Notes under the pieces: generated by a model
Seen by the model: only the letters and a program-made list of their open reading frames with translations
Told to the model about the DNA's origin: nothing
The model's database searches: none
Shown here: positions 39,201-49,120 of the stretch, one piece after another
How the letters are laid out: each line of letters starts with the position of its first letter
How positions within the stretch are numbered: the stretch's first letter is position 1
Translations under genes and position numbers: made by a program
NCBI GenBank assembly: GCA_938074535.1
Contig: CALJER010000008.1
Coordinates: 1-64,000, forward strand
Direction: 5' to 3'
Length of the DNA stretch: 64,000 nt
Source of the DNA: an uncultured archaeon
Lineage (GTDB): Archaea > Hadarchaeota > Hadarchaeia > Hadarchaeales > WYZ-LMO6

Positions 39201-39950
39201 TCAGGGGGGTAGATACCCCAGTCTCCGGAGGAGTTCCCCCACCCCCAGCAGGGCCGGGGCATCCCCGCGCAGCTGGAAGATGGTTCGCCCCTCCCTGTCC
39301 AGCTCCTCCACCTCTTTGTCCTCCGGCACCCTCCCAAGGACTTCCATGCCTACAGGTACCTCCACCTCCTCCCCCCCCTTCATCCTGTTCAGAACCAGCC
39401 CCGCCCTCCTGTACTTCACCGCCCCCCTGTCCGCCACCCCCTTTATGGTGAAAGCCACTCCCAGCGACCTGGGAGAGGGGTCGGAGACCAGCAGTAGGTC
39501 ATCCACCTCCCTCATCACCCTCCGGTTGATCTGCTCCACCCCGGCCTCCCCGTCTATCACCACCACCTCGAAGCTCCTGGAGACCGAGGTGAGGATCTCC
39601 CTCAGCAGCTCGTTGACCCTGCAGTAGCATCCCTCCTCCTCGGGCCTCCCCATCGCCAGCAGCGAGAATCCCCTCCTCTCCTCCATCACCCCCAGCACCC
39701 CGTAGTCCAGGGAGAGGGCGAGCTCCTCCCGGCTCACCTTTCCCAGGGAGGAGATCCATTCCCTCCTCAGGTCCTCCACCGTCCTCCTCACCTCCACCCC
39801 CAGGGCCTGGGAGAGACCCGAGGAGGGATCCGCATCCACCGCGAGCACCCTCCTCCGGCCACCCTCCACCAGCAGCCGCAGGGAGGCTGAGGCCAGGAAG
39901 GTCTTCCCCACGCCCCCCTTCCCGCAGAAAACCATCACCCCTTCCCTCAC
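39201..39950 (-). CDS. CooC/AcsF-like nickel-insertion ATPase
   Basis: GKGGVGKT, VDADP, MGRPEEEGCYC (CxC), IDGEAGVEQINRR, LVLNR. Confidence 0.88.
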   Translation of the reverse strand: MREGVMVFCGKGGVGKTFLASASLRLLVEGGRRRVLAVDADPSSGLSQALGVEVRRTVEDLRREWISSLGKVSREELALSLDYGVLGVMEERRGFSLLAMGRPEEEGCYCRVNELLREILTSVSRSFEVVVIDGEAGVEQINRRVMREVDDLLLVSDPSPRSLGVAFTIKGVADRGAVKYRRAGLVLNRMKGGEEVEVPVGMEVLGRVPEDKEVEELDREGRTIFQLRGDAPALLGVGELLRRLGYLPP

Positions 39951-40657
39951 TTCTTCCCCTCCCTCAGCATCCTATCCCTTATCGCCCTGAGCTCCGCCAC
40001 GCTCCCGCACACCTCCCTGTAGTCGCATCTGTCGCAGTCCAGCGAAACCTCCTCCACCATCTTGCCCACGGCCCCCGCTATCTTCCTGGCCTTCTCCCCA
40101 AACCCCCAGAGGGCCCTCACGCCCTCCTCGCAGGTGGAGAAGACCACCTCCGCGGAAGACAAGGGGAAGCCGGAGCGCAGGGCCCTCAGGAGGGCCCCCC
40201 CCACCACGGAGAGGGAGAGGCCCCTCTCCACCGCCTCCCTGCTCACCCTGCTCCAGGCCTTCAGCTGGGAGGGCAGGCCCCTGACCATGTACCCCCTGAG
40301 CCCGATCCTGAGCGGAGCCAGGTTCAGCCTCCGGTACTCCTCATCCCTGACCTCCCTCGATTCCACCAGACAGAGCTGGGCGAAGGGGACCACGCCCCTC
40401 AGCCGCGGCAGGTCCTCCCCCCACAGGCTCACCCTCCCCTCCTCCACCAGCCCGGGAGTCTCGGTGAGGAGAACCGAGGAGAAGGAGGGGAGCTCCGGCG
40501 GACCGAGCTCCACCCACGTATCCTCCTTCAGAACCACGCCGGATTCCCCCAGGAAGCCGTCCGGGTCGAGGGGCGTGAGCCTCCTCACCCTCCCCCCGCT
40601 TTCTCCCCTTTTCAGAAGCTCCCGCAGGGACCTCAGGTCCTCATCGAAGAGCTTCAT
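39947..40657 (-). CDS. Truncated acetyl-CoA synthase beta (CdhC)-like protein with C-terminal CxxCx5C motif
   Basis: KEDTWVELG...VEEGRVSLWGEDL...PFAQ and GYMVRG...WSRVSREAV resemble the CdhC N-terminal domain. A-cluster domain absent; ends with LDCDRCDYREVC. Confidence 0.65.
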   Translation of the reverse strand: MKLFDEDLRSLRELLKRGESGGRVRRLTPLDPDGFLGESGVVLKEDTWVELGPPELPSFSSVLLTETPGLVEEGRVSLWGEDLPRLRGVVPFAQLCLVESREVRDEEYRRLNLAPLRIGLRGYMVRGLPSQLKAWSRVSREAVERGLSLSVVGGALLRALRSGFPLSSAEVVFSTCEEGVRALWGFGEKARKIAGAVGKMVEEVSLDCDRCDYREVCGSVAELRAIRDRMLREGKK

Positions 40658-41426
40658 CCGCCCTCTCCCGCGCGAGCAGGCAGGCCCCGTAGGCCCCCGC
40701 CAGGATGGGGTCCAGCGGGAGCCTCCTCACCTTCCTCCCCAGTTGCTCCTCCAGGGCCCTCACGAAGCTCTCCAGCCTGCTCACCCCTCCGGCCACCACC
40801 ACCTCCCCCCTCATCCCCACCTTCCTCACGATGGAGGAGACCCTCCCCGCGATGGCCCTGGTGACGGCGGCCACGACGTCCTGCACCTCCTCCCCCTCGT
40901 TCAGGAGGGCCACCACCTCGCTCTCGGCGAAAACCGTGCACTGGGAGGTGATGGAGAGTTTCTTGGTGGAGCGAGACACCGCCTCGTCCCACTCCTCCAG
41001 CCCTATGCCCAGGGCTTCCCCCAGAAGCTCCAGGAACCTCCCCGCCCCGGCCGCGCACCTGTCGTTCGTCCCGTAGTCCACCACCCTTCCCCCCTCCATC
41101 ACCGCCACCCTGGTGGTGTTGGCCCCCACCTCCACCACCGTTCCGGCCTCGGGAACCAGGGAGCTGCACGCCCTGGAAAGGCAGAGAAGGACGGGTCTCT
41201 CCTCCCTGACGAAGTCCAGACCCCTCACCCTCTCCCCCGTCCCCACGCAGTAGGCCACCTCCTCCCACCTCCTCCCGGCACCCTCCAGCGCGAGGGCGAA
41301 GGCACGCTCCGCCGTCTCCCTGGCCCTCGGCCCGGTCTCCAGGACGGCGTGGCCCAGAAGGGAACCATCTTCCATGAGGAGGGCCTTCACCCTCCCGCTC
41401 CCCACGTCCAGTCCTCCCACCAGCAT
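40641..41426 (-). CDS. CoA-enzyme activase (BadF/BadG/BcrA/BcrD ATPase family), degenerate paralog
   Basis: GLDVGS, GTG, NDRCAAGAGRFLE, CTVFAESE, GGV, GAYGA. VEVGANTT replaces the usual DIGGQD. Confidence 0.88.
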   Translation of the reverse strand: MLVGGLDVGSGRVKALLMEDGSLLGHAVLETGPRARETAERAFALALEGAGRRWEEVAYCVGTGERVRGLDFVREERPVLLCLSRACSSLVPEAGTVVEVGANTTRVAVMEGGRVVDYGTNDRCAAGAGRFLELLGEALGIGLEEWDEAVSRSTKKLSITSQCTVFAESEVVALLNEGEEVQDVVAAVTRAIAGRVSSIVRKVGMRGEVVVAGGVSRLESFVRALEEQLGRKVRRLPLDPILAGAYGACLLARERADEALR

Positions 41427-42208
41427 CAGCTTCCCCCCACCTTCTGCCTGGCGAAGAGGGCCGCCCCGAGGGCCCCCACCAGCTGCGGGTCGAAGTCCAG
41501 CCTGAGGAGGGGGACCCCCAGCATCTCCTCCAGGTACCTCACCACCCCCACGTTCTTCGCCACCCCTCCGGAGAGGACCACCTCCCTCTCCACCCCCATC
41601 CTCGAGGCCAGCGCCTTCACCCTCGCCGCCATGGCCTGATTCACACCCGCCGCCACATCCTCGGCGCTGGCACCCTCAGCCAGCTGGGAGAGGACCTCCG
41701 ACTGGGCGTAGACCGCACACACGTTGGTGATGGGTATGGGCCTCCTGGAGGAAAGGGAGAGCCTTCCCAGCTCCTCCACTCCCACTCCCAGCGTCTTGGC
41801 CATCAGCTCCAGGAACCTCCCCGTTCCCGCCGCGCACTTGTCGTTCATGACGAAGTTCAGCAGCCTTCCCTCCCCGTCCACCCTTATCACCTTGCAGTCC
41901 TGCCCCCCTATGTCTATCACCGTCCTCACGGAGGGAAGGAGCCAGTGGGCACCCTTTCCGTGGCAGGAGATCTCCGACACGTTCTCCCCCGCGAAAGGAA
42001 TCCTCACCCTGCCGTAGCCCGTCCCCACGCAGTAGGCCACCTCCTCCCACCTCCTCCCCGCCTTCCTCAGCGCCTCCTCCATCACCTCCCTGGCCGAGAG
42101 CTCCGGTCTGGGTTTGACCCTCCTCACCTCGTGGGAGAGGATGCGCCCGTCCTCCAGCAGGACGGCCTTGGCGGTGAGGGAGCCCACGTCGCAGCCTGCC
42201 ACCAGCAT
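41426..42208 (-). CDS. CoA-enzyme activase (HgdC/BcrA-type ATPase)
   Basis: DVGSLTAK, TGYGR, EISCHGKG, DIGGQDCK, MNDKCAAGTGRFLE, CAVYA, GGVAKN. Confidence 0.93.
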   Translation of the reverse strand: MLVAGCDVGSLTAKAVLLEDGRILSHEVRRVKPRPELSAREVMEEALRKAGRRWEEVAYCVGTGYGRVRIPFAGENVSEISCHGKGAHWLLPSVRTVIDIGGQDCKVIRVDGEGRLLNFVMNDKCAAGTGRFLELMAKTLGVGVEELGRLSLSSRRPIPITNVCAVYAQSEVLSQLAEGASAEDVAAGVNQAMAARVKALASRMGVEREVVLSGGVAKNVGVVRYLEEMLGVPLLRLDFDPQLVGALGAALFARQKVGGS

Positions 42209-42209
42209 G

Positions 42210-43577
42210 CTAGCCCAGTCCCATCGTTTCGTTGAACTCCAAAATCCTGCGCTTGATCTCCGAAACGGGGCTGACCCTGAAGTCCCAGGAGTCAGCCTCC
42301 AGCCTGAGGCAGGGCAGGCCCGTCTCCCTCTGGAGCGCCCTTATGAAGGCCTGGAAGCCCCCCCAAGTGTTCTTGCAGGCAGGATGGCCGGCGAACACGA
42401 AGCAGTCCCCTCCCCACTGCTCCACGCACCACACGTAGTCCTCCAGCCACTGGTCGGGCAGATCCACAGGCCCCCTCTGCTGCCTGGTCATGGGGTAGCT
42501 CCAGCACCTCTGCGCCAGCCCCTCCAGCATGGTGTCCAGGGAGGAGGTGTCGATGGGTTTCTCCGCGTGGAAGAGGGTGAGGACGTCCACCACGTAGCTC
42601 ATCCCGTTCTCCTCCAGCCAGAACCAGAGGTCCATGCTGGGGGGGTAGAAGCCCGTGTACACCCAGATCTGCCTGATGCGCTCCTCCGGCTTCGCTCCTT
42701 CCCCCTTCCTGAGCCTGTCCTTGGAGGCCTCCAGCACGGCCTCGAAGACCCTGGTCCCCTGCGGGGTCCCCACCGAGCTGAACTTCACGCCCTGGAGGAA
42801 GATGTTGAAGGAGGAGTGGACGGGGTTGGGGCGGGCCCTCTTCAGGTCATTTATCTCCAGGTAATACTTCCTGCACTTCTCGCTCTCCTCCACCACCTCC
42901 CTCAGCCTCTCCTCCTCCAGTTTCTTCCCGGCGAACTCCTCCAGCCTCCTCACCTGGTGCCTGTACTCCTTCGTGTAGTAGTCGAAGGCCCTCTCCCCGT
43001 GGTAGGTGGGACAGTCTATCCCCAAATAGGGAACACCCAGGCGGACCGCCATGTACTCGTAGAGCTTGGAGTTGGCGTCGCAGCTTCCTGGGGCGGCGGT
43101 AACCACCAGATCCGGGCGCAGGCCCAAGCCCTTCAGGATGGCCCCGCAGGCTGCCCTCTGGGAGGTGCACATGGTCTCGAGCAGTCCCTCCTCCACGCTC
43201 CAGTCGAAGTAGACGTGGGGATCCTCGAGGAAAATGGTGGCGAAGGAGGTGAGGACCTCCGGCACCAGCGGGACGAGGTCCAAAGCGTAAAAGACCTCCG
43301 GGGCGGTGTTGAAGCTGGAGAGCACCACCTTCTTTCCCTCCTCCCTCGCCCCCCTCAGCATCCCGAGATACCAGGCCGCCCACCTAGAGACCTCCAGGGC
43401 CACCCTCCGGATGGCGGGGTCGGAGAGGAAGAGATGCCTCAGGACCTCGGCCTGGGAGGGAACGGCCGCCACCAGGTCCTCCATTTCCCTCTCCGTAACG
43501 TCCTCGGGGATGGAGGAAGCCGTGGAAAGAAGGATGAAGAGCCTCTCCTCGAGCGGCAGCTGCCTAGCCTCTTCCAC
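42210..43577 (-). CDS. 2-hydroxyacyl-CoA dehydratase / benzoyl-CoA reductase family subunit (HgdA/BcrB-like)
   Basis: PEVFYALD, MCT, SCD..K, LEEFAGKK, C-terminal ACK...GLPCLRLEAD..D; about 70-aa N-terminal extension. Confidence 0.85.
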   Translation of the reverse strand: MEEARQLPLEERLFILLSTASSIPEDVTEREMEDLVAAVPSQAEVLRHLFLSDPAIRRVALEVSRWAAWYLGMLRGAREEGKKVVLSSFNTAPEVFYALDLVPLVPEVLTSFATIFLEDPHVYFDWSVEEGLLETMCTSQRAACGAILKGLGLRPDLVVTAAPGSCDANSKLYEYMAVRLGVPYLGIDCPTYHGERAFDYYTKEYRHQVRRLEEFAGKKLEEERLREVVEESEKCRKYYLEINDLKRARPNPVHSSFNIFLQGVKFSSVGTPQGTRVFEAVLEASKDRLRKGEGAKPEERIRQIWVYTGFYPPSMDLWFWLEENGMSYVVDVLTLFHAEKPIDTSSLDTMLEGLAQRCWSYPMTRQQRGPVDLPDQWLEDYVWCVEQWGGDCFVFAGHPACKNTWGGFQAFIRALQRETGLPCLRLEADSWDFRVSPVSEIKRRILEFNETMGLG

Positions 43578-43899
43578 CAGCCTCCCTCCTCTCGGCCAGC
43601 CTCCTCAGCTCCCTCTCCTCCAGCCTCGGGCGGAGGTAAATCGCGTACCCACCCTGGGTCTTCTCCACCATGAGCTTCCATCCGCCCTTCTCCCCCTCCT
43701 CCCTCTCCGACTGTCCTCTCACCACCCTGTCCAGCATCTCCTCCATCCCCTCCAACAGCTCCCTGGGAAGTCTGGACCTGAAGTCGGGGCAGATCCTGGT
43801 GCTGGCGGGGTTCTCCTCGCTCCCCTTCAGCTGACACCTTATCCTCTCCCACTCCATCCACGCGGCCCAGAAGCAGTCACCGCACCTAACGGGGCTCAT
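43564..43899 (-). CDS. Small Cys-rich hypothetical protein within the dehydratase/reductase operon
   Basis: MSPVRCGDCFW...RCQ...ICPDF. ATG overlaps the upstream stop (ATGA); SD-like GGGGAG. Confidence 0.7.
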   Translation of the reverse strand: MSPVRCGDCFWAAWMEWERIRCQLKGSEENPASTRICPDFRSRLPRELLEGMEEMLDRVVRGQSEREEGEKGGWKLMVEKTQGGYAIYLRPRLEERELRRLAERREAGGRG

Positions 43900-45029
43900 C
43901 TCCCCAGCCTCTCCAGGAAGGCCTGGATTCTGGTCCTGATCCTCCCCACCTCCGCCAGCGGGCCGTACTGCCTCTCCAGGAGCAGAGTGGGCACCCCCTC
44001 CTCCTCCAGCCTCCTGGCGAAGAGGGTGTTGTCTCCTCCATGCGTGTCGCAGAACTTCATGTGCTCCAGGACCACTCCTTCCACCCTCCATTCTTTGATG
44101 AGCCTCCTCAAAAAGTTGAGCTTCCTCTCGAACTCCCCATAGGTCCTGGCGCAGGGTACGTGGTAGTAGTACCTCCTCACCAGGGCCTCAAAGGGGTCCC
44201 CCCCCTCTTCCACCATGTCCACGATGGACCTCATGCCGAAGCAGAGGGAGTCCGTGACCACCAGGCCCCCCTGCCCCTCTATCACCCTCACCAGCTCCGG
44301 ATCGTCGTTCACGCTCCCCACGAGCATCAGCCTGGTTCCGGAGTACTCCTTTCCCCTCTCCTCCACTTCCTCCAGCGCTTCCTCCAGCAGGCGGTTGTAG
44401 ACCTCCCTTCTCACAGCCGTGCTCGCCACGTGGAGGGCCAGGGCCTCCTGCCCGGAAACAGGGGGTCTCTCCCTCTTTCTCCTTTCGTTGAGCTCCAGGA
44501 GGAGCCTCCTCCCCCTGTTGTACTCCCTGATGGCCTCCTCCAGCTTTTCGGGAGAGAGCTCCGTCCCGAAGTGCCCCTCCATGGCCTTCAAAAGGGAGAA
44601 GATCTCGCCCCGGTAGAACTCCAGCCCGTGCTCCGTGAGGGTGTGGGGGATCCCAAAGTAGTAGAAGAAGGGGGGGAGGTTCCCCGCCGCCTTCCAGCAG
44701 TCGTACATCCTCCTCACATGATCGCAGGTGCGGGAGATCACGGCCCCATCCAGGAAGTCGTACCTTCCCTCCAGCACCAGCTGCAGGCAGCAGCGCGTGT
44801 AGCTGCAGTTGACGGGACCGTACCAGGCGTCCGCCAGGGAGGTTCCTGAGCAACCCGTCCCCCTGATCCTGAAGGGAAGCATGCCCAGGGCGTGGACGAG
44901 CTCTTCCGGGAAGTAGCTGCAGGTGTAGCCCACGACCCTCCCTCCTCCCCTCTTCCACTCTTCCAGCAGGGGATTGGAGATCCCCGAGGAGACCCGCTCC
45001 AGGGCTTCTAGACTTCCCACTTCAAACAT
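43896..45029 (-). CDS. 2-hydroxyacyl-CoA dehydratase / benzoyl-CoA reductase family subunit (HgdB/BcrC-like)
   Basis: VGYTCSYFPEEL, NCSY, TCDHVRR, DSLCFG, MKFCD, RTRIQAFLE. Start at ATG 45029. Confidence 0.88.
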   Translation of the reverse strand: MFEVGSLEALERVSSGISNPLLEEWKRGGGRVVGYTCSYFPEELVHALGMLPFRIRGTGCSGTSLADAWYGPVNCSYTRCCLQLVLEGRYDFLDGAVISRTCDHVRRMYDCWKAAGNLPPFFYYFGIPHTLTEHGLEFYRGEIFSLLKAMEGHFGTELSPEKLEEAIREYNRGRRLLLELNERRKRERPPVSGQEALALHVASTAVRREVYNRLLEEALEEVEERGKEYSGTRLMLVGSVNDDPELVRVIEGQGGLVVTDSLCFGMRSIVDMVEEGGDPFEALVRRYYYHVPCARTYGEFERKLNFLRRLIKEWRVEGVVLEHMKFCDTHGGDNTLFARRLEEEGVPTLLLERQYGPLAEVGRIRTRIQAFLERLGR

Positions 45030-45078
45030 GGTTCTTGCGGGCATAAATCTTTTTTTTTGAAGGGGCCAAGAAAAACCG

Positions 45079-46275
45079 ATGGGAGATAAGAAGGTGGTGG
45101 TCCTGGGAGGGGGCGGGGTGGTGGGAAGAACCGCCGTGAAGGACCTGGCCAAGAGCGGGGTCTTCTCGGAGGTGGTGGTGGCCGACAAGGAGGTGGAGAA
45201 GGCGAGGGAGCACCTGGAGGGAGTTCCCCGCCTCTCCTTCGTGAAGGCAGACCTCACGGAGTTGTCCATCCTCAGGGAGGTGATAAAGGGGGCGGACGTG
45301 GTTCTGAACACCGTAGGACCCTTTTACAAGTTCGGCCCCTTGCTCACGAGGGAGGCCATACGGACCGGGGTGAACTACGTGGACATCTGCGACGACTACG
45401 AGGCCACGCTGGAGCAGCTGAAGATGGACGAGGAGGCGAGGAAGAGGGGTGTGACCGTCCTCACGGGCATGGGCTCTTCACCCGGCGTGGCCAACGTGGT
45501 GGCCAAGTTCTGCTCCCAGTTGCTGGACCAGCCGGAGGAGATCCACATCTACCACATCCACGGGGGGGAGCCGGAAGAGGGGCCCGGGGTGATCTACCAC
45601 CGCATCCACTACATGACGGGAAAAATCCCCATGCTGAAGGATGGGAAGATGGTGTACTTCGGGTTCTTCAGTGAGGAAGGGAGAAGGGAAATAGAGGAAG
45701 TGGACTTCTACGAGCCCATAGGGGTGGCGAAGGTTTACCCCTACCCGCACCCGGAGACCATCACCCTCCCCAGGTACATCCCGGGCCTCAGGAAGGTCAC
45801 CAACAAAGGGTCCGTCCTACCCCTGGAATACTACGAACTGCTGCGGGAGGCCGTGAAGATGGGTTTAGCCGATGAGAAGCCCCTGAAGGTGGGAGGGGCC
45901 TCCGTGGCCCCCATCGACTTCCTGGTCTCCTTCGTCCTCTCCAAGAGGAAGGAATATGCGAGCAGGCTGCCTGAACCCGTGGGTTGCCTGAAGATCGTGG
46001 TGAGGGGGAGAAAGGGGGGAAAGAGGATGGAGTACAGGTTCGCCATCCCCTCCAGGGGTGCGGGTATGGGGGAGGGAACGGCCATTCCCGCCTCGGTGGG
46101 CACGCAGATGGTGGCCAGAGGGGAGATCGAGGAGAAAGGGGTCCTCCCCCCGGAGGCCTGCGTGGATCCCATGAAATTCTTCGAGGAGGCGAGGAGCAGG
46201 GAGGGGATGGGCGGCGTCAGGATCATCTTCGAGAGCGTGGACGAGGAGGGGAGGGTGACCAGCATACCCCTTTGA
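45079..46275 (+). CDS. Saccharopine dehydrogenase-like NAD(P)-dependent oxidoreductase
   Basis: VLGGGGVVG Rossmann motif, NTVGPF, YVDICDD, GMGSSPG, HPETITLP, GVLPPE. Confidence 0.88.
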   Translation: MGDKKVVVLGGGGVVGRTAVKDLAKSGVFSEVVVADKEVEKAREHLEGVPRLSFVKADLTELSILREVIKGADVVLNTVGPFYKFGPLLTREAIRTGVNYVDICDDYEATLEQLKMDEEARKRGVTVLTGMGSSPGVANVVAKFCSQLLDQPEEIHIYHIHGGEPEEGPGVIYHRIHYMTGKIPMLKDGKMVYFGFFSEEGRREIEEVDFYEPIGVAKVYPYPHPETITLPRYIPGLRKVTNKGSVLPLEYYELLREAVKMGLADEKPLKVGGASVAPIDFLVSFVLSKRKEYASRLPEPVGCLKIVVRGRKGGKRMEYRFAIPSRGAGMGEGTAIPASVGTQMVARGEIEEKGVLPPEACVDPMKFFEEARSREGMGGVRIIFESVDEEGRVTSIPL

Positions 46276-46312
46276 CCCAAGCCTTTTTTTCCTCCAGAAA
46301 ACCACTCTTTTG

Positions 46313-47611
46313 ATGTTCAAGTGGAGGGAAAAGGAGTACGAGGAGCTTGAGGCTCAGCCCGAGGCCCTCCCCGAGGGGGTGGATCCCGAGGAATACGTCA
46401 TCGCCACCTACTTCCTCTCCCTCCCCTCCGCCCTGGATCCCTGGGAGGTGGCTAGGGCCCTGGCCATAGAGCAGAGCACGGGAACCTGGGTGCCCGTTCC
46501 CGGGGAGACCCCCGAGGTGAGGAAGAAGCACGTGGCCAAAGTGGTGGGACTGTACGAGGCCCCCTATCCGGAAGTCCTCTCCCCCACGGAGGCCAGGGAG
46601 AGGAACTATGTGGTGCAAATCGCCTTCCCGCAGGTGAATTTCGGGAAACAGATCCCCATGCTCCTCTCCACGGTGGCGGGGAACCTGATGTGCTGGGAGA
46701 AGATCAAGCTCCTGGACCTCCGCTTCCCCAAGAGCTTCGTGGAGGGCTTCGGGGGCCCCAAGTTCGGGATAGAGGGGATAAGGAAGCTGCTGGGAGTGGA
46801 GGAGAGGCCCCTGATCAACAACATGATCAAGCCCTGCACCGGCTTTACACCCGACGTGGGTGCGAGGCTGGCCTACGAAGCGGCGGTAGGGGGAGTGGAC
46901 ATGATCAAGGACGACGAGCTACTGGGCAACCCCTCCTTTAACCCCATAGAGGAGAGGGTGCCGAAGTACATGGAGGCTCTGGACAGGGCGAACAGGGAAA
47001 AGGGGGAAAAGACCCTCTACACGGTCAACATCACGGACGAGGCCTCCAGGGTGATGGAGAACGCGGACAGGGCCATAGAGCTTGGGGCGAACGCCCTCAT
47101 GATCAACTATCTCACCGCCGGAATCTCCCTGCTCAGGGAGCTGGCGGAGGATCCAAGCATCAACGTCCCCATCCTGGCCCACATGGACTTCTCCGGCACC
47201 ATGTACGTCTCCCCCTACTCAGGCCTCTCCTCCTCGCTCCTGCTGGGGAAGCTGCCCAGGCTGGCGGGTGCCGACATCTTGGTCTACCCAGCACCCTACG
47301 GGAAGGCCCCCTTCATGAAGGAGAGATACGTGAGGATAGCCCACCACCTGACCTTTCCCCTCTACCACCTCCGCCCCACCTTCCCCATGCCCAGCGGGGG
47401 GATCACGCCCTCCATGGTGCCCGAGGTGGTGGGGGATCTGGGGAAGGACATCGTGATAGGGACGGGGGGAGGGATCCACGCCCACCCCATGGGTCCCAGG
47501 GCCGGAGCCAGGGCCTTCAGGCTGGCGGTGGAGGCGGTGATGAGGGGGATGAGCCTGCAGGAGATGGCCAAGGAGCACGAGGAGCTGAGGGTGGCCCTGC
47601 AGATGGGCTGA
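46313..47611 (+). CDS. RuBisCO-like protein (form IV RLP)
   Basis: EQSTGTW, GPKFGIEG, IKPCTG, DMIKDDE, YTVNIT, PSGG, GGGIHAHP. Lacks the second Lys of KPKxG, the Arg of HRA and His327 of true RuBisCO. Confidence 0.92.
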   Translation: MFKWREKEYEELEAQPEALPEGVDPEEYVIATYFLSLPSALDPWEVARALAIEQSTGTWVPVPGETPEVRKKHVAKVVGLYEAPYPEVLSPTEARERNYVVQIAFPQVNFGKQIPMLLSTVAGNLMCWEKIKLLDLRFPKSFVEGFGGPKFGIEGIRKLLGVEERPLINNMIKPCTGFTPDVGARLAYEAAVGGVDMIKDDELLGNPSFNPIEERVPKYMEALDRANREKGEKTLYTVNITDEASRVMENADRAIELGANALMINYLTAGISLLRELAEDPSINVPILAHMDFSGTMYVSPYSGLSSSLLLGKLPRLAGADILVYPAPYGKAPFMKERYVRIAHHLTFPLYHLRPTFPMPSGGITPSMVPEVVGDLGKDIVIGTGGGIHAHPMGPRAGARAFRLAVEAVMRGMSLQEMAKEHEELRVALQMG

Positions 47612-47620
47612 GGGGGTTCC

Positions 47621-49120
47621 TTGGGGTACATCCTGGCCCACGACCTGGGGACGGAGCTCAACAAGGCCGCCCTGGTGGACGAGGAAGGGAGGATAGTCGC
47701 CTACTGTACCCAGGAGTACCCCGTCTCCTATCCCAGGCCGGGGTGGGCGGAGCAGGATCCGGAGCTCTGGTGGGAGGCCGTCAGGGAAACCACGAAAAAG
47801 GTGCTGGAGCTGGCGGGGATCAAACCGGGAGAGGTGGAGGCGCTGGTCTTCGACAGCATGATGTACACGCTGGTGGCGGTGGACCGGGGAGGAAGACCGC
47901 TCAGGCCGGCCATCCTCTGGCTCGACACCAGGGCGAAGGCCCAGGCGGAGGAGCTGATGGGAAGCCTGGACCTGCTGGGGATGCTGGAGAGGGGGGTGAT
48001 CCCGCCCACCTCGGCCAAGGACATCACCCCGAAGATCCTGTGGGTGAAGCAGGAGGAGCCGCACGTTTTCGAGAAGGCCTGCTTCATCGACAGCAAGGAC
48101 TACCTGGTCCACCGGTGCGTGGGGGAGTTCTACACCGACTGGAGCTGCGCCAGCCTCTTCTGCCTCTTCAACTTCAGGGAGAAGAGGTGGGAGGAGGAGC
48201 TGGTGGAGGAAATGGGCCTTTCCCTGGAAAGGCTCTCCAGGCCCGTGAAGAGCACGGAGGTGGTGGGGAACCTCACGGAGGAAGCCTCCAGGGAGCTTGG
48301 ACTGCCCAGGAAGGTGGAGGTGGTGTGCGGGTCCGGGGACGCCACCGCGGTGGCGGTGGGAGCGGGGGGACCCCACCTGTACGTGGGGACCTCGGCCTGG
48401 ATAGGTGCCCACGTGGAGGAGCCCCTCTTCGACCTGACCGGCGTGGGCAGCATCTGCTCCGCCGATCCCTCCAGGTTCTTCCTGATAGGGGAGATGGAGA
48501 ACGCCGGGGCCTGCCTGAAGTGGTTCAGGGAGACCCTGGCCAGGGAGGAGAAGGAAAGGGCGGAGAAGGAGGGAAAAGGCCCCTACCAGCTGCTGGACGA
48601 GCTGGCCTCCGGTGCGGAGGCCGGGTCGGGGAAGCTCCTCTTCCTCCCCTGGATGATGGGGGAGAGGTGCCCCTTCACCCAGTCCACCGCCAGGGGGGCC
48701 TTCCTGAACCTCACCTTCGGGCACACCAAAGGGCACCTGGTGAGGGCGGTGCTGGAAGGGGTGGCCTACCACATGAGGTGGATCCTGGAGGTGGTGGAAG
48801 GGATGGGGCTCTCCCTCCCCTCCATCAGGGCCTGCGGCGGAGGGGCTAAGAGCGGGGTCTGGCTCCAGATCTTCGCCGACGTGATGGGGAGGAAGGTGGA
48901 GAGGGTCTCCTCCCCGCACCACGTGGGCTCGCTGGGAGCCGCCACCCTTGCCAGGGTAGGTCTGGGAAAGACGGACTTTTCCTCGGCGGAGAGGTCCGTG
49001 AAGGTGGAGGGGGAGTTCCTCCCCTCGGAGGAAAACCGGGACATCTACGACAGGATGTACGAGGAGTTCAGGGGGATGCAGGGGAGGCTGTCGGAGGTCT
49101 TCGAGCGCCTCAACACCTAG
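47621..49120 (+). CDS. FGGY-family carbohydrate kinase (xylulokinase-like)
   Basis: HDLGT, GWAEQDP, ILWLDTR, GSGD, GTS, FLPWMMGERCP, RAVLEGVA, GGGAKS..W.QI.ADV. Confidence 0.92.
   Translation: MGYILAHDLGTELNKAALVDEEGRIVAYCTQEYPVSYPRPGWAEQDPELWWEAVRETTKKVLELAGIKPGEVEALVFDSMMYTLVAVDRGGRPLRPAILWLDTRAKAQAEELMGSLDLLGMLERGVIPPTSAKDITPKILWVKQEEPHVFEKACFIDSKDYLVHRCVGEFYTDWSCASLFCLFNFREKRWEEELVEEMGLSLERLSRPVKSTEVVGNLTEEASRELGLPRKVEVVCGSGDATAVAVGAGGPHLYVGTSAWIGAHVEEPLFDLTGVGSICSADPSRFFLIGEMENAGACLKWFRETLAREEKERAEKEGKGPYQLLDELASGAEAGSGKLLFLPWMMGERCPFTQSTARGAFLNLTFGHTKGHLVRAVLEGVAYHMRWILEVVEGMGLSLPSIRACGGGAKSGVWLQIFADVMGRKVERVSSPHHVGSLGAATLARVGLGKTDFSSAERSVKVEGEFLPSEENRDIYDRMYEEFRGMQGRLSEVFERLNT

Follow-up and report, generated by a model that had tools for sequence, protein, structure and literature searches.

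A recurrent gene set linking a predicted ATP-driven, benzoyl-CoA reductase-like core to a truncated acetyl-CoA synthase-like protein and a CooC-type ATPase in Hadarchaeales and uncultured bacteria

Results

A seven-gene operon in an uncultured Hadarchaeales genome

The subject of this study is a group of seven genes, here named g1 to g7, from an uncultured Hadarchaeales archaeon (GenBank assembly GCA_938074535.1). The stretch of DNA analysed, referred to as the window, comprises positions 1 to 64,000 of contig CALJER010000008.1, and the seven genes occupy its minus strand at 39201-45029 as open reading frames (ORFs) with overlapping or abutting starts and stops. An earlier interpretation made from the letters alone, called here the sequence-only reading, had described seven such same-strand genes and had proposed an uncharacterised ATP-dependent enzyme with a class I benzoyl-CoA reductase (BCR)-like core, joined by a small four-cysteine protein, a truncated acetyl-CoA synthase (ACS)-like protein and a CooC-type ATPase. 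Coordinates together with Pfam and NCBIfam matches confirmed the arrangement:

g1, 43896-45029, minus strand, 377 aa, HGD-D protein similar to BzdN
g2, 43564-43899, minus strand, 111 aa, small protein with four conserved cysteines
g3, 42210-43577, minus strand, 455 aa, divergent HGD-D protein
g4, 41426-42208, minus strand, 260 aa, activase-type ATPase
g5, 40641-41426, minus strand, 261 aa, second, more divergent activase-type ATPase
g6, 39947-40657, minus strand, 236 aa, CdhC-like protein
g7, 39201-39950, minus strand, 249 aa, CooC-like ATPase

The genes are tightly packed: g1 and g2 share an ATGA overlap, g2 and g3 overlap by 14 nt, g3 and g4 are separated by a 1-nt gap, and the last three junctions are overlaps of 1 nt (g4/g5), 17 nt (g5/g6) and 4 nt (g6/g7). 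The codon-position GC of g1-g7 matched that of the window's real genes, with third-position values (GC3) of 0.84-0.90 in six of them and of ~0.70 for the longer frame that contains g2. The window has ~65% G+C and is archaeal, encoding a split RpoA, aEF-1alpha and archease, and the assembly as a whole amounts to 1.21 Mb in 53 contigs at 93.6% completeness.

An enzyme core of two HGD-D subunits and two unlike ATPases

g1 matched the Pfam family HGD-D with an E-value of 2.5e-91, and its closest solved relative was BzdN (8s02_B, 1.5e-51, residues 23-376) from the Bzd type of class I BCR (BzdNOPQ; 8s02, 8s1t, 8s2r). According to the passages of PMC11971306 that describe it, BzdN holds its [8Fe-9S] cluster through Cys36, Cys73, Cys100, Cys263, Cys293 and Cys327. 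These six positions aligned with C37, C75, C102, C263, C293 and C327 of g1, which therefore carries the complete six-cysteine set of the Bzd type. Among g1-like ORFs, all six were kept in 19 of the 21 that scored high and in all 11 that scored lower. Scores against curated NCBIfam models were nevertheless low, with 177 bits for double_cubane (NF040772, cut-off 350), 172 for bzdN (cut-off 454) and 149 for HadC (cut-off 700). g1 is predicted to be a double-cubane [8Fe-9S] subunit that relays electrons.

Two different ATPases are encoded further downstream. Both g4 and g5 matched BcrAD_BadFG (2.5e-62 and 1.2e-40) and scored above the cut-off of 125 bits for TIGR00241 (270 and 184 bits), and both fell short of the bzdQ cut-off of 380 bits (221 and 111 bits). 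Each has a pair of cysteines 39 residues apart, C125/C164 in g4 and C124/C163 in g5, and 90% or more of 101 activase-like ORFs have conserved them; by analogy to HgdC, I take these pairs to be the ligands of a bridging [4Fe-4S] cluster. The operon thus has the two different ATPase subunits with two cluster cysteines each that mark the Bzd type. g5 is the more divergent of the two, being off-consensus at several conserved positions and reading EVGAN where g4 has DIGGQ. At one metagenomic locus, L091, the two activases are fused into one ORF.

The second HGD-D protein, g3 (Pfam HGD-D, 1.3e-53), turned out to be harder to place. As a single sequence its top solved match was DCCP at only 9e-9, while a profile built from 34 homologues was about equidistant from HadB (1.4e-27), DCCP (6e-24) and BzdO (5.6e-22). 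Three cysteines, C137, C166 and C401, were invariant and aligned with Cys95, Cys128 and Cys380 of BzdO, which, in the description given by PMC11971306, hold a [4Fe-4S] cluster whose fourth iron has a water ligand. In profile alignments E107 of g3 was conserved at the position of a glutamate in HadB and DCCP. The BzdO alignment stops short of this site, and E107 is taken to be the equivalent of BzdO Glu65 because both lie 30 residues from the first cysteine of the cluster. The position of the catalytic BzdO His131 is occupied by Asn169 in g3 and by asparagine in 39/39 family members, so that g3 has the cysteines and the glutamate of a BzdO-type active site with the histidine replaced. The full signature E-C-C-D-N-C was found in 38/39 members of the family. 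Equivalog scores were very low (bzdO 25.5 bits against 449; HadB 42.7 against 750), and the best of all models was double_cubane with 50 bits against 350. From these motifs, g3 is predicted to be the subunit that binds and converts the substrate at a three-cysteine [4Fe-4S] cluster. Homologues of g3 carry the labels Proteobacteria, Actinobacteria, Asgard and Archaeoglobaceae.

Two HGD-D subunits and two different ATPases of the ASKHA type amount to the architecture of a class I BCR, as the sequence-only reading had recognised, and its description of the core as uncharacterised also held up: none of g1, g3, g4 and g5 scored above a curated BCR, dehydratase or DCCP equivalog cut-off, the Bzd/Bcr models compared being TIGR03190/03191/03192 and TIGR02259-02263. 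By sequence, then, the core has class I BCR architecture and lies outside the BCR, dehydratase and DCCP equivalogs.

This architecture, the rank of BzdN as the top solved relative of g1 and one source's label 'benzoyl-CoA reductase subunit B' for a homologue would all be expected if the operon encoded a genuine Bzd-type BCR for the anaerobic degradation of aromatics. I consider this most improbable. The bzdN, bzdO and bzdQ scores (172 vs 454, 25.5 vs 449 and, for g4, 221 vs 380) are all far below their cut-offs, the g3 profile is no nearer to BzdO than to HadB or DCCP, and Oah (TIGR03200) was not found in the 93.6%-complete genome, where the top score was 53 bits against a cut-off of 464. The replacement of His131 by asparagine and the missing Oah both argue against true benzoyl-CoA reduction. 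In addition, bzd clusters are not known to have ACS-like or CooC-like genes.

The (R)-2-hydroxyacyl-CoA dehydratases (HadBC/HadI, HgdAB/HgdC; 3o3m) resemble the operon in their HGD-D heterodimer, in a three-cysteine [4Fe-4S] cluster with an open iron site and in an ATP-dependent ASKHA activator. A dehydratase with its activator, acting in amino-acid fermentation, would agree with HadB as the top solved match of the g3 profile, with NCBI labels that call homologues '2-hydroxyacyl-CoA dehydratase', and with the description of Hadarchaeota as heterotrophs on amino acids and sugars in a passage of PMC10811742. It is very unlikely all the same, given that HadB and HadC scores (43 and 149 bits) are far below cut-offs of 750 and 700, that the operon has two different ATPase genes in place of one homodimeric activator, that g1 has the six-cysteine double-cubane motif, that g6 and g7 are additional, and that neither a 2-hydroxyacid dehydrogenase nor a CoA-transferase adjoins the operon. 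Sequence does not discriminate between reductase, dehydratase and aroyl-CoA chemistry; a low-potential reductase of the BCR type is better supported for this core than a ketyl-type dehydratase.

g6 resembles the N-terminal domain of CdhC and g7 resembles its CooC

The product of g6 was barely recognised by Pfam CdhC (1.2e-5; 25.6 bits, cut-off 24) and scored 29.6 bits against the cdhC equivalog cut-off of 356. A profile of seven close homologues was searched against 1.84 billion representatives at 50% identity and retrieved 562 of them with an E-value of 1e-3 or less, of which 363 were at or below 1e-10 and 67 at or below 1e-30. The 150 representatives listed were mostly full-length proteins of ~240 aa. 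Close homologues carry the label Candidatus Hadarchaeales, and an Atlas search indicated Bacillota for g6-like clusters. A CxxCx5C motif was kept in 155/156 g6-family sequences examined, and its cysteines C208, C211 and C217 were the sole invariant columns of a 67-sequence alignment.

Both profile and structure comparisons led to ACS. Aligned with hhalign against the genome's own 488-aa CdhC, the g6 family gave a probability of 99.3 and an E-value of 4e-20, with g6 40-213 lying on CdhC 20-200. C208 and C211 sat on the first two cysteines of the CdhC A-cluster motif GCTLCQSFAPTHVC; the genome's own CdhC has GCTLCQSFAPTHVC followed by a further cysteine, plus SCGC. The AlphaFold2 (AF2) model of g6 was of high confidence (pLDDT 94.2, pTM 0.90), and 23/23 Foldseek matches at E<=0.001 were ACS chains, with TM scores by query of 0.51-0.66 over ~167-195 aligned columns. 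Together, the hhalign and Foldseek matches place g6, as far as sequence and model go, as the domain that is N-terminal in CdhC and in the middle (A2) of bacterial ACS, extended just into the A-cluster motif; g6 is thus no ACS. In contrast to CdhC/AcsB, the protein stops at residue 236, 19 residues past the third cysteine, and has neither the fourth cluster cysteine, nor the Cys-Gly-Cys Ni site, nor the C-terminal A-cluster domain, and its spacing is CxxCx5C in place of CxxCx8C.

g7 is a P-loop ATPase of the CbiA/MinD type. Its top solved match was CooC1 of C. hydrogenoformans (3kje, 2.2e-16, residues 7-242) with the CYC motif aligned, and it combines the deviant Walker A motif GKGGxGK[ST] with a CXC motif and full-length similarity to CooC1, as is typical of the CooC/AcsF family. 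The GKGGVGKT sequence was invariant in a 58-sequence alignment; C108 and C110 were invariant in 86 g7-like ORFs, 98% of which also had C9, just before Walker A, an extra conserved cysteine that distinguishes the g7 family from AcsF/CooC. Apparent g6-g7 or g7-containing fusion proteins were rejected, as the long g7 ORFs merely stay open upstream of g7, where they overlap g6 in a different reading frame.

The operon contains no carbon monoxide dehydrogenase (CODH) and no complete ACS, in agreement with the sequence-only reading. A true cdhA-cdhC set with a CooC paralogue divergent from cdhA lies on another contig of the same genome, and the organism therefore has a regular CODH/ACS to which g6 and g7 are extra copies. 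Four CooC-type paralogues, all with CXC, are encoded in the genome; those besides g7, one of which is divergent from cdhA-cdhC, are:

G000:C14:12435-13193, CooC-type paralogue
C16:20105-20833, CooC-type paralogue
C5:17054-17740, CooC-type paralogue

The cdh-linked CooC was the closest of these to g7: the two are 40% identical, and it scored 186 bits against the g7-family profile, compared to 99 and 73 bits for the other two. g6 and g7 therefore mirror CdhC and its CooC. The pair differs from ACS/AcsF in being linked to HGD-D enzymes and not to CODH/ACS.

Complex prediction, which the sequence-only reading had put forward as a check, supports binding of g6 to g7. The pair scored 0.82 (runs 0.86, 0.81 and 0.82) and the best of three controls 0.00, on a scale whose mark was reached by 58/80 solved complexes and by 2/110 mismatched pairs, a calibration that is rough here because custom alignments were used. 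Contacts agreed by at least 98% among runs and the partner had a pLDDT of at least 85. On the g7 side the predicted interface covers 33-34, 71-96 and 122-127, including D82, Y83 and E91, which are at least 90% conserved; the cdh-linked CooC has E-Y-G at the D-Y-G position of g7. On the g6 side it covers 40-46, 54, 109-117, 126-135 and 202, with a G-Y-M-x-R-x-x-P...W stretch that is common to CdhC.

These properties of g6 could also mean, as the sequence-only reading has it, that it is a permanent extra subunit with its own metallocentre (Fe-S, possibly Ni) for electron entry or catalysis, g7 being merely its AcsF-like maturase. Three of the four A-cluster [4Fe-4S] cysteines are kept and invariant in g6, g6 is predicted to bind g7, the 17-nt overlap couples g6 translationally to g5, and the operon has no ferredoxin gene. 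However, the parts of the A-cluster site that g6 is missing, and a g6 subfamily that has no HGD-D or activase neighbour whatsoever, speak against such a role, which I regard as unlikely although it is the main alternative.

The gene set recurs in other archaea and in bacteria

Full-length g6 orthologues were found in four of 41 Hadarchaeales genomes (G000-G003, one genus). Nine of the 41 had any g6 match, five of these through a true CdhC only, and HGD-D genes were present in exactly the same four genomes as g6. In G001-G003 the whole region is syntenic, with 70-96% protein identity; these are close kin and contribute little independent evidence.

Metagenome contigs were a broader source of comparison. 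They were scanned with a degenerate pattern for the C-terminal motif of g6, verified on the window, which gave at least 119 stretches, at least 117 of them with a g6-family ORF, in at least 67 clusters at 70% identity. All loci counted below are such contigs, anchored on g6. A g7-like gene stood directly downstream of g6 on the same strand in 82/89 listed loci with at least 700 nt of flank (55/57 clusters). Upstream, given at least 1700 nt of flank, one or more activases were present in 48/54 listed loci (35/36 clusters) and two or more in 44/54 (33/36 clusters). With at least 4600 nt of flank, 25/29 listed loci had one or more HGD-D genes upstream and 24/29 two or more (20/21 clusters). The complete six-gene set was found in 18/24 listed loci in which both flanks were adequate, and Pfam searches of 12 long loci returned the order HGD-D, HGD-D, BcrAD, BcrAD, CdhC-like, CbiA/CooC-like.

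The gene order varied (1AA367, AA367, 1367, 137A6, 33AA67, and the fused activase of L091) while the gene set was unchanged, which favours a shared function over inherited synteny. An HGD-D pair lies directly downstream of g6 in L064 and L025, and L067 and L081 have kept g7 with no activases detected. Among these g6-anchored loci g6 nearly always travels with the rest of the module, and the recurrence of the gene set in many unrelated contigs puts the arrangement far beyond chance. According to the sequence-only reading, its proposal would have failed if CooC-like and CdhC-like genes were not conserved beside these dehydratases elsewhere; in other contigs both were conserved beside HGD-D and activase genes.

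The small protein g2 fared differently. It had no Pfam or NCBIfam match, was 70-85% identical in the three congeneric genomes, and kept C6, C9, C22 and C37 invariant in four congeneric copies. No g2 homologue was found in the at least 117 metagenome loci, so that it was seen in this genus only, and some listed loci have an unrelated, cysteine-free protein of ~80 aa in its place. The AF2 model was of low confidence (pLDDT 65, and 45-55 across the cysteine-bearing part). Judged by its distribution, g2 is a genus-only add-on outside the conserved six-gene module (g1, g3, g4, g5, g6 and g7). The four-cysteine protein named in the sequence-only reading is present in the operon. The overall interpretation of that reading is supported in part: for the core architecture, the uncharacterised status, the conserved CooC/CdhC linkage and, by prediction, the g6-g7 pairing, but not for g2 as a part of the module.

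Clues to the substrate from neighbouring genes

Neighbours at the bacterial loci include pairs of acyl-CoA dehydrogenases, GMC oxidoreductases, AMP-forming ligases, enoyl-CoA hydratase, thiolase, ETF, thioesterase, aldehyde:ferredoxin oxidoreductases and TetR/GntR regulators, which fits a CoA-ester substrate that varies by pathway. The Hadarchaeal genome itself has about seven AMP-binding ligase genes. A CoA thioester is the most likely substrate, and it is probably not benzoyl-CoA.

An alternative is a reductase for small molecules other than CoA esters, similar to DCCP with its reductase DCCP-R (6eno, 7yyl), with g6 and g7 supplying or tuning a heterometal cluster. The six-cysteine [8Fe-9S] motif of g1, ATP-driven electron injection, the rank of double_cubane as the top NCBIfam match of both g1 and g3, a C-D motif common to g3 and DCCP, and an archaeal operon free of CoA-metabolism neighbours are all in its favour. 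This is highly improbable, however: g1 reaches 177 bits where the cut-off is 350, the conserved cysteines of g3 number only three, DCCP is a single HGD-D protein with a homodimeric reductase whereas the operon has two HGD-D and two ATPase genes, making both core and ATPase heteromeric, and the bacterial neighbourhoods are rich in acyl-CoA enzymes.

Upstream region and further genes around the operon

A single short region separates the operon from the divergent gene that begins at 45079:

45030-45078, no strand assigned, divergent intergenic region of 49 bp with an A-rich tract and a TATA-like AGATTTAT at 45050-45043

This region is common to both genes. With only ~18 nt between AGATTTAT and the g1 ATG, a leaderless operon mRNA is probable, and g1 may in truth start at a GTG at 45020; both suggestions lean on the usual archaeal distance between TATA box and start.

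Divergent from the operon, a saccharopine-dehydrogenase-like gene, a RuBisCO large-subunit homologue (433 aa) and an FGGY-family kinase occupy one strand at 45079-49120, and the saccharopine-dehydrogenase-like and RuBisCO-like genes also adjoin the operon in the three congeneric genomes. On the other side a convergent nrdD ends 118 bp past g7, and nrdDG are among the neighbours of the operon. Two sequencing runs labelled as metatranscriptomic, which are probably DNA, contained contigs of a ~91%-identical relative that run across the operon (39201-45002); they are not readable as expression. The match of this relative to the window ends near 45002, where its upstream region is different.

Several further genes were seen at the metagenomic loci. 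A conserved gene, here called 'U', stands directly upstream of the g1-like gene in ~19 listed bacterial loci. Its product is an all-alpha, cysteine-poor protein of 440-580 aa that had no Pfam or NCBIfam match and no usable Atlas lead, and a search with the L024 copy found no homologue in the genome of the window. Copies upstream of g1-like genes, among others, are:

L024:3-1367, 'U' gene
L043:1650-3137, 'U' gene
L052:9384-10868, 'U' gene
L038:7123-8445, 'U' gene
L023:5631-7367, 'U' gene
L082:877-2202, 'U' gene

In 7/45 listed loci with at least 2.5 kb downstream, a further pair of paralogous HGD-D genes comes after g7 or g6, and loci with such a pair are L044, L071, L090, L116, L130, L131, L064 and L112. 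All six double-cubane cysteines are present in this pair, glycine occupies the position of g3 Asn169, and an extra activase is sometimes found alongside. At L038:589-1272, and also in L074, a CbiM-type Co/Ni uptake gene lies 6 nt downstream of the g7-like gene. Finally, the g6 subfamily without core neighbours has the gene order TetR, g6-like, coiled-coil protein and rhodanese-domain (sulfurtransferase-type) protein, with no CooC, activase or HGD-D gene nearby:

L053:6947-9913, rhodanese-linked g6-like locus
L107:4747-7821, rhodanese-linked g6-like locus
L086:8344-10030, rhodanese-linked g6-like locus

Discussion

The best reading of the operon, held with middling confidence, is an ATP-driven reductase, so far uncharacterised and probably with a CoA ester as its substrate, together with a metallocentre module derived from ACS and AcsF (g6 and g7) that would serve the assembly or repair of the enzyme's clusters. 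This proposal is built on gene content, on motifs, on a gene set that is conserved and on a complex prediction that agrees with it, and from these I infer an electron path and a substrate class. g4 and g5 would, by homology, form a heterodimeric ASKHA ATPase with a bridging [4Fe-4S] cluster held by two cysteines per subunit. Driven by ATP hydrolysis, an electron of low potential would enter the double-cubane [8Fe-9S] cluster of g1, from where it would pass to the three-cysteine [4Fe-4S] cluster of g3, and the open iron site of this cluster would bind the substrate and then reduce (or ketyl-activate) it.

The second half of the proposal concerns g6 and g7, which would have descended from a pair of ACS and AcsF-type CooC. 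CooC-type proteins are known solely as maturation ATPases, and since the predicted partner of g7 is an ACS homologue, I assume that g7 does for g6 what AcsF does for ACS. The g7 ATPase, which has a CXC metal site, would dock on the ACS-like domain of g6 and, driven by ATP, load or hand on a metal ion or Fe-S unit at the three-cysteine site of g6; g6 might then pass the metal or Fe-S unit to g1, g3, g4 or g5, and the transfer would thereby contribute to the assembly or repair of the enzyme's metalloclusters. Which metal is involved, and which way it is transferred, are likewise inferred. An analogy is offered by NifH, a relative of the ATPase class of g7: the P-cluster is made by fusing two [4Fe-4S] clusters, for which NifH is required. 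The double cubane has been likened to P-cluster precursors in a passage of the ChemBioChem review PMC7317905.

Several observations weigh against an assembly module. DCCP is reported to acquire its clusters in E. coli without such helpers. The same is described for BzdNO in the relevant passages of PMC11971306, and it is therefore not obvious that an assembly factor of its own is needed. The residues confidently predicted for the 1:1 interface do not include the cysteine motifs of g6 and g7. One g6 subfamily (L034, L053, L056, L086, L107 and L137) has no CooC, activase or HGD-D neighbours, and no CoA-ester genes adjoin the Hadarchaeal operon. Among annotated loci, a Ni/Co uptake gene is adjacent in one sequence cluster only (L038/L074). 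As to the survey, loci anchored on g6 cannot show whether enzymes of the g1/g3 clade also occur without g6 and g7; the scan pattern fits only 43/156 g6-family representatives, and the listed loci are a lower bound; and the loci are not independent, with at least 117 of them collapsing into 67 clusters at 70% identity.

A bolder version of the assembly proposal, which I rate as rather improbable, is that this HGD-D clade carries a heterometallic (e.g. Ni) or otherwise non-standard Fe-S cluster in its active site, inserted by a two-protein, ATP-dependent insertase derived from ACS and AcsF in which g7 loads the three-cysteine site of g6 and g6 delivers to g3 or g1. If true, these enzymes would form a new class of Ni-Fe-S radical enzymes or reductases, and the insertase would include the first maturase of the CooC type whose client is not CODH/ACS.

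A literature search, with subscription papers and supplements outside its scope, found no HGD-D or BCR-type enzyme linked to CooC-like and truncated ACS-like genes. The passages of PMC7317905, PMC11237513, PMC1924859 and bioRxiv 10.64898/2026.07.07.736967 that were covered do not mention the gene combination. The clade may already be contained in the supplementary alignments or trees of the BzdNO paper or in the clusters of the DCCP sequence network. The combination of HGD-D and activase genes with g6 and g7, which recurs in uncultured bacteria and archaea, appears to be undescribed.

Homologues of these genes are automatically named 'benzoyl-CoA reductase', '2-hydroxyacyl-CoA dehydratase' or 'CO dehydrogenase/acetyl-CoA synthase beta subunit', and such names can mislead reconstructions of aromatic degradation and Wood-Ljungdahl potential from metagenome-assembled genomes. 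The module also offers a concrete, testable case of a CooC-type ATPase outside CODH/ACS. The surface predicted for its docking, g7 71-96 on g6 126-135, may hold for AcsF on ACS as well. The ATP-driven BCR, 2-hydroxyacyl-CoA dehydratase and DCCP enzymes perform some of the lowest-potential reductions in biology, and a widespread, unstudied branch of them with a cut-down ACS and a private CooC suggests a new route for building or repairing Fe-S clusters, or a new metallocofactor.

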